55,376 nucleotides of DNA from Escherichia coli (GTDB lineage Bacteria > Pseudomonadota > Gammaproteobacteria > Enterobacterales > Enterobacteriaceae), in NCBI RefSeq assembly GCF_003334255.1, contig NZ_QOWU01000035.1; one strand, written 5' to 3'. Position 1 is the stretch's first letter. Every line of letters starts with the position of its first letter. The notes beneath the pieces are model-generated. The model saw only the letters and a program-made list of their open reading frames with translations. It was not told the origin of the DNA and ran no database searches. A program made the translations under genes and the position numbers. This document shows, one piece after another, positions 28,536 to 28,764 of this stretch.

Positions 28536-28764
28536 AGTAAACCGCAACGCCCCTGAGAGTGAGTATCATTTATAATGATAATTCAAACTATCACATAAAT
28601 AAGATTTATATATAATTTATATTATTCAGGCAATGAATTACTTTTGCAAGCCATCGCATTCTCTTATGTTATTAATGAGTTATGCTGATTTGTTAAGCAG
28701 TTTTATCACGCTTGAAATGGCGTCCCGCCCCGACAGGTGAATCGTCGGGGCTGATTTTTTCTTA

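Follow-up and report, generated by a model that had tools for sequence, protein, structure and literature searches.

The hairpin and U-tract between sdiA and tcyN in Escherichia coli: very probably the terminator of the known small RNA SdsN

The spacer between sdiA and tcyN in Escherichia coli carries, on its plus strand, a strong hairpin followed by a run of T, while both neighbouring genes are read from the minus strand; which transcript would such a terminator end? Here we address this question for a 55,376-nt stretch of E. coli DNA (the window), in which the surrounding region is the E. coli neighbourhood uvrY-yecF-sdiA-tcyN-tcyL-dcyD. The original prediction, made from sequence alone, had offered two answers: a short plus-strand transcript divergent from sdiA, that is, a candidate small RNA, or a hairpin indifferent to orientation. 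The two genes bounding the spacer are as follows.

27813..28535, minus strand: sdiA coding sequence (open reading frame; collinear with K-12 sdiA, b1916, at a constant offset of 25702; divergent from sdsN)
28765..29517, minus strand: tcyN (yecC) coding sequence (open reading frame and K-12 annotation; convergent with sdsN)

The spacer between them measures 229 nt and is the whole extent of the finding (28536-28764). Its base composition bears out the predicted AT-richness of the DNA upstream of the hairpin, with a GC content of 35% over 28536-28764 and of 25% over 28560-28700, against 50.5% across the window. The segment 28500-28800 was matched in 5376 of 5426 complete E. coli genomes, at 100% identity in many complete chromosomes and with a median copy number of one place per genome. 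Fifty of the genomes gave no match to this segment, and among the 5387 matching places one is on a plasmid record, a few genomes carrying two copies.

Folding of the plus strand upholds the prediction of a strong hairpin plus U-tract at about 28725..28762, and resolves it into two elements.

28727..28751, plus strand: putative SdsN intrinsic terminator stem-loop (RNA fold; 8-bp stem, 9-nt loop; single-copy in the window)
28755..28760, plus strand: U-tract of six U, of which the last, 28760, is the annotated SdsN 3' end

The stem pairs GCCCCGAC with GUCGGGGC, seven of its eight base pairs being G:C on the plus strand, and reads as a 5' arm GCCCCGAC (28727-28734), a loop AGGTGAATC (28735-28743) and a 3' arm GTCGGGGC (28744-28751). 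Beyond the 3' arm come TGA, the TTTTTT run at 28755-28760 and CTTA, followed by the tcyN stop codon (28765-28767, minus strand), which lies 4 nt past the SdsN 3' end; seven of the first nine nucleotides of the plus-strand tail are T. RNA folding of 28722-28762 returns the hairpin as minimum free energy structure and as centroid alike (-16.8 kcal/mol, z = -2.75), and 2 of 200 shuffled sequences fold as well. The plus strand thus has the form that defines an intrinsic terminator, a GC-rich stem-loop and then a U-tract. The built-in promoter and terminator scan made no call at the hairpin because its 9-nt loop exceeds the 8-nt loop limit of that scan. A custom scan that asked for a perfect stem (7 bp or more, 5 or more of them G:C), a loop of 3-10 nt and a T-run no further than 4 nt away returned, for the two strands of the 55-kb window together, four such sites, the hairpin at 28727 among them, as compared with a mean of 0.07 sites and a maximum of 2 in 100 dinucleotide-preserving shuffles. 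Elsewhere in the neighbourhood, a classical and bidirectional-looking terminator lies at 27750-27785 between the convergent yecF (plus strand) and sdiA (minus strand); it reads AAAA CCGGCTGA (11-nt loop) TCAGCCGG TTTTT and is absent from both scans because its loop is long.

Comparison with the K-12 reference supplies a transcript for this terminator. The MG1655 RefSeq record annotates an ncRNA, sdsN (b4719, "small regulatory RNA SdsN"), at 1996921-1997057 on the plus strand between sdiA and tcyN, and its homologue in the window can be placed without gaps.

28624..28760, plus strand: SdsN137 small regulatory RNA (sdsN, b4719 homologue; ungapped alignment to the K-12 ncRNA sdsN)

Of the 137 bases, 135 are identical, the offset between the two sequences being 25702 throughout; the differences are at 28709 (C in the window, G in K-12) and 28726 (C in the window, A in K-12), and neither touches the terminator stem or the conserved 5' two-thirds of SdsN. 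The window element and K-12 SdsN also share their locus, their strand, the hairpin and a U-tract at the annotated 3' end. Since that annotated end coincides with the last T of the T-run (28760), we read the hairpin as the SdsN terminator: the hairpin and U-tract at 28727-28760 on the plus strand are very probably (probability about 0.95, as judged from sequence and annotation transfer) the Rho-independent terminator of the known small RNA gene sdsN. The short plus-strand transcript divergent from sdiA that had been proposed as a candidate small RNA therefore corresponds to sdsN, in agreement with the K-12 annotation and with the literature on SdsN137 and SdsN178. The accompanying statement that no plus-strand gene lies upstream failed in the matter of annotation only, K-12 having this plus-strand ncRNA gene there.

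SdsN is already known, having been characterised in 2016 and annotated in the K-12 reference. In RefSeq E. coli genomes other than K-12, the matched segment bears only sdiA and tcyN, or nothing, and a search of 27000-30000 against Rfam 15 at E<=1 matched no family. Rfam appears to be without an SdsN model, so that this null result says nothing against the identity of the element; it is the combination of no Rfam family with routine E. coli annotation that is blank at this position that made the locus look unannotated. The case can serve as a calibration point: a reader with the sequence alone correctly arrived at a small RNA from an orphan terminator and AT-rich, promoter-like DNA, at a place that has no Rfam model and that is left blank in thousands of routinely annotated RefSeq genomes of E. 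coli.

Promoter-like hexamers had also been predicted upstream of the hairpin, and two TATAAT sequences are indeed present on the plus strand, each at a short distance from the start of an SdsN isoform.

28611..28616, plus strand: TATAAT -10 hexamer of the proximal promoter (perfect match; 7 nt upstream of the SdsN137 5' end)
28571..28576, plus strand: TATAAT -10-like hexamer of a putative distal promoter (6 nt upstream of the inferred SdsN178 start at 28583)
28583..28760, plus strand: SdsN178, the long isoform (extent inferred from the 178-nt length in its name and the published common terminator)

The proximal hexamer is invariant in seven of seven Escherichia sequences, while in the distal one TATA.T is kept and position 5 varies. 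From their placement we infer that the two hexamers belong to the two published SdsN promoters. A third form is shorter, and the start of the 124-nt SdsN124 would presumably be at 28637. Cleavage reportedly yields SdsN124, which is said to repress nfsA and hmpA, and SdsN178 is said to be a poor regulator of nfsA, hmpA and narP owing to unusual Hfq binding.

What the transcript would do can be drawn largely from published work, of which the primary account of SdsN is that of Hao, Updegrove, Livingston and Storz (Nucleic Acids Res 2016;44:6935, PMC5001591). As described in further papers, SdsN137 and SdsN178 are RpoS-dependent and arise from two promoters with one common terminator, several transcription start sites giving rise to the different SdsN species. 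The RNAs are described as Hfq-dependent and as building up in stationary phase, with levels that answer to RpoS and, in a NarP-dependent manner, to nitrogen sources. SdsN137 is given as one of three isoforms, with nfsA, hmpA and narP as confirmed targets, all of them repressed, and protection against nitrofurans is attributed to SdsN. In the SdsN137-1 mutant, in which pairing is lost, control of narP and of the downstream target napF is reported to be gone. Furthermore, the listed members of the Crl regulon include sdsN, and deleting sdsN137 (delta-sdsN137) has served to remove a known nfsA regulator. Mapped onto the window, these accounts would have two RpoS-dependent promoters in the AT-rich region produce SdsN178 and SdsN137 with a shared terminator. 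By annotation transfer, the SdsN137 transcript would run from 28624 to 28760 and stop at the last U of the tract. According to the literature, SdsN137 would then pair with the translation initiation regions of nfsA (a nitroreductase), hmpA (an NO dioxygenase) and narP and repress them, a repression that would raise nitrofuran resistance. The terminator hairpin and its 3' U-tail may double as a 3' module that binds Hfq and stabilises the RNA, an arrangement known from other Hfq-dependent sRNAs.

SdsN resembles SdsR/RyeB, GadY and SraL, RpoS-dependent and Hfq-binding RNAs of enterobacteria, which are likewise described as stationary-phase sRNAs with a GC hairpin and a U-tail that act by base pairing; SdsN differs from these three in being reported with several isoforms from tandem promoters. 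It differs further from SdsR in its distribution, SdsR being described as a "core" sRNA conserved across enterobacteria, whereas in our comparison SdsN could be aligned in Escherichia and in no genus besides.

Candidate pairing sites for all three published targets can be predicted in the RNA, of which the one for narP is placed as follows.

28625..28632, plus strand: UUCAGGCA, candidate narP pairing site (prediction; SdsN137 nt 2-9, a perfect 8-bp complement of narP +2..+9, UGCCUGAA)

In addition, the invariant UUCUCUU of SdsN has a predicted 7-bp match with the nfsA Shine-Dalgarno region, and GUUAAGCA a predicted 8-bp match with hmp +2..+9. Windowed duplex energies for nfsA, narP and hmp were no better than those for 36 unrelated start regions taken from the window. 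With whole-length SdsN, RNAduplex predicted pairings to the three target start regions that were unrealistically long and yet weaker on energy than the background mean. We treat the three predicted sites as leads and not as evidence.

The original prediction had proposed a check of conservation and covariance across enterobacteria. We assembled 80 loci anchored on SdiA, with one genome per species. The order sdiA-tcyN is conserved across Enterobacteriaceae, as is the length of the spacer (about 205-300 nt); the small RNA within the spacer is confined to Escherichia. The blastn matches to the 137-nt SdsN, 79-90% identical, come only from the five other species-level genomes of Escherichia (SdiA is 92-98% identical in the same five), and blastn and nhmmer searches outside Escherichia found no SdsN body, only the sdiA-proximal ~100 nt being alignable there. 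Likewise, a profile of the Escherichia spacer, run on Citrobacter, Salmonella, Enterobacter and others, picks up only about 28545-28645 of the window. Within Escherichia, SdsN137 hardly varies over its first ~70 nt, and the next ~35 nt are highly variable. The terminator stem is kept: 91% of alignment cells in the Escherichia stem are paired, a share that drops to 30-54% once the partners are slid. Two stem pairs have changed on both sides across Escherichia species. These changes are supportive, if not strongly so with seven sequences, of a stem maintained by compensatory substitution. Every Escherichia species carries the T-run (TGATTTTTTC; TGAGTTTTTC in E. albertii), which no other genus has.

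Outside Escherichia, nearly every Enterobacteriaceae genus examined has a strong hairpin 5-15 nt from the tcyN stop codon. These hairpins are followed by 0-5 T, mostly 0-2, in the nine downstream plus-strand bases, and it is usually on the tcyN strand that their tail is the richer in U (4-6 U in many cases, at most 8), for example ...CUGGAGCAAAUUAUUCUC in Enterobacter. MAFFT aligns the Escherichia 5' arm CGCCCCGAC with the arm CTCGCCCGAA of Salmonella and Citrobacter, a correspondence suggestive of common descent of the hairpin. As the alignments stand, the position of the hairpin looks ancestral and linked to tcyN, while its use as a plus-strand terminator and the body of the sRNA look like Escherichia innovations. 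Tentatively, and at somewhat less than even odds, SdsN may be an Escherichia-specific sRNA born by the re-use of an older tcyN-side hairpin: in Escherichia a T-run would have arisen on the opposite side of the hairpin, and the SdsN body would have replaced the sequence upstream. The tcyN-side hairpin would have become the terminator of a new transcript divergent from sdiA, driven by promoter-like, AT-rich DNA that is conserved beyond Escherichia. An SdsN body and U-tract confined to Escherichia beside an older hairpin position would make a small, clean example of an sRNA arising next to an existing terminator hairpin; we count the genus-restricted distribution and the apparent switch in terminator polarity as minor side results.

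The prominence of the hairpin on the tcyN side of other genera bears directly on a competing account of its role in E. coli, namely that it mainly or additionally ends or protects the 3' end of the dcyD-tcyL-tcyN mRNA, whether by bidirectional or collision-assisted termination or by holding back 3' exonucleases. Besides the near-constant presence of a strong hairpin just past the tcyN stop and its U-richer flank on the tcyN strand outside Escherichia, this account can draw on the E. coli hairpin itself, which folds even better on the minus strand, with 9 bp (the value of -21.8 kcal/mol is the fold of a 65-nt minus-strand segment, a small second stem included), and on the convergence of sdsN and tcyN only 4 nt apart, such that tcyN transcription must enter the hairpin. 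On the minus strand, however, the Escherichia hairpin runs into GGGACGCCAUUUCAAG with no U-tract; the tail GGGACGCCAU has 0 U in its first nine nucleotides and is not that of a canonical intrinsic terminator, in keeping with the earlier view of the hairpin as a poor tcyN terminator. A single hairpin between convergent sdsN and tcyN is what bidirectional intrinsic terminators have as well; unlike them, the Escherichia element has its U-tract on the plus strand only and is canonical one way. Term-seq data (Adams et al., 2021) add a weak, condition-limited argument in the same direction: among the entries listed, there is no minus-strand 3' end between K-12 positions 1996471 and 2001913. The 3'-end tables of that study, again among the entries listed, contain no sdsN, tcyN or yecC and no 19970xx position, under conditions that may not favour SdsN; separately, they place a minus-strand 3' end inside the sdiA coding sequence, at about 28174 (K-12 1996471). 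We consider a tcyN-side role rather unlikely, and if real it would leave the SdsN reading standing, as at most an added role.

Two further accounts fare far worse. The hairpin could be a chance or repeat-derived, REP-like palindrome without a transcript-specific role, and indeed the RepRanger survey labels sdsN as containing "REP". A REP in the sense of a dispersed, multi-copy palindrome is nevertheless ruled out, the 25-nt hairpin being single-copy in the window even with three mismatches permitted and present at a median of one place per E. coli genome, hence not a dispersed repeat. Sites with a hairpin and T-run are moreover about 50 times rarer in shuffled sequence, and the structure seems to be retained by compensatory changes across Escherichia species, so that we hold this origin to be highly improbable. 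Equally slight is the chance that the plus-strand transcript is a small mRNA and not a non-coding RNA, as an ATG-initiated, 35-codon open reading frame at 28633-28740 (plus strand), inside SdsN, might suggest. Its start ATG has become ATT in one Escherichia lineage (L004), its 3' half has indels and dense substitutions among Escherichia species, and base-pairing mutants in the published work are reported to account for the phenotypes. A reading as a 35-aa protein was rejected, the frame not being conserved even within Escherichia; it is probably not coding. SdsN remains the reading that we prefer for the transcript ended by this hairpin.

Several observations around the sdsN promoters concern sdiA as much as the small RNA. 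Just upstream of sdiA, at 28566-28589, is a Fur-box-like sequence that overlaps the putative SdsN178 -10 region: the E. coli version, ATAATGATAAT, agrees with the consensus GATAATGATAATCATTATC at 12 of 19 positions, and (T)GATAATCATTAT in Citrobacter, Salmonella, Enterobacter, Lelliottia and Leclercia (loci L007-L063) is an exact 12-nt match to the 3' part of the consensus. This similarity hints at an iron or Fur input to sdiA or sdsN. The motif CTATCACATAAAT (28588-28600), also in the sdiA upstream region, is almost invariant in all genera, even those without an SdsN body, and is probably a regulatory site for sdiA; in E. coli it falls in the -35 region of the SdsN137 promoter. In the comparison set, two records look mislabelled or contaminated: a 503-nt contig filed as Terrisporobacter mayombei (L066) encodes a 98% identical fragment of E. 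coli SdiA, and an 800-kb contig filed as Chryseobacterium sp. 18061 (L077) carries an enterobacterial sdiA-tcyN locus. Finally, a promoter-like TTGCAA-17 nt-AATAAT arrangement on the minus strand (28649-28621) lies inside sdsN and is directed at sdiA; if it were used, there would be antisense overlap between the sdiA 5' UTR and SdsN178, and between the promoters as well.
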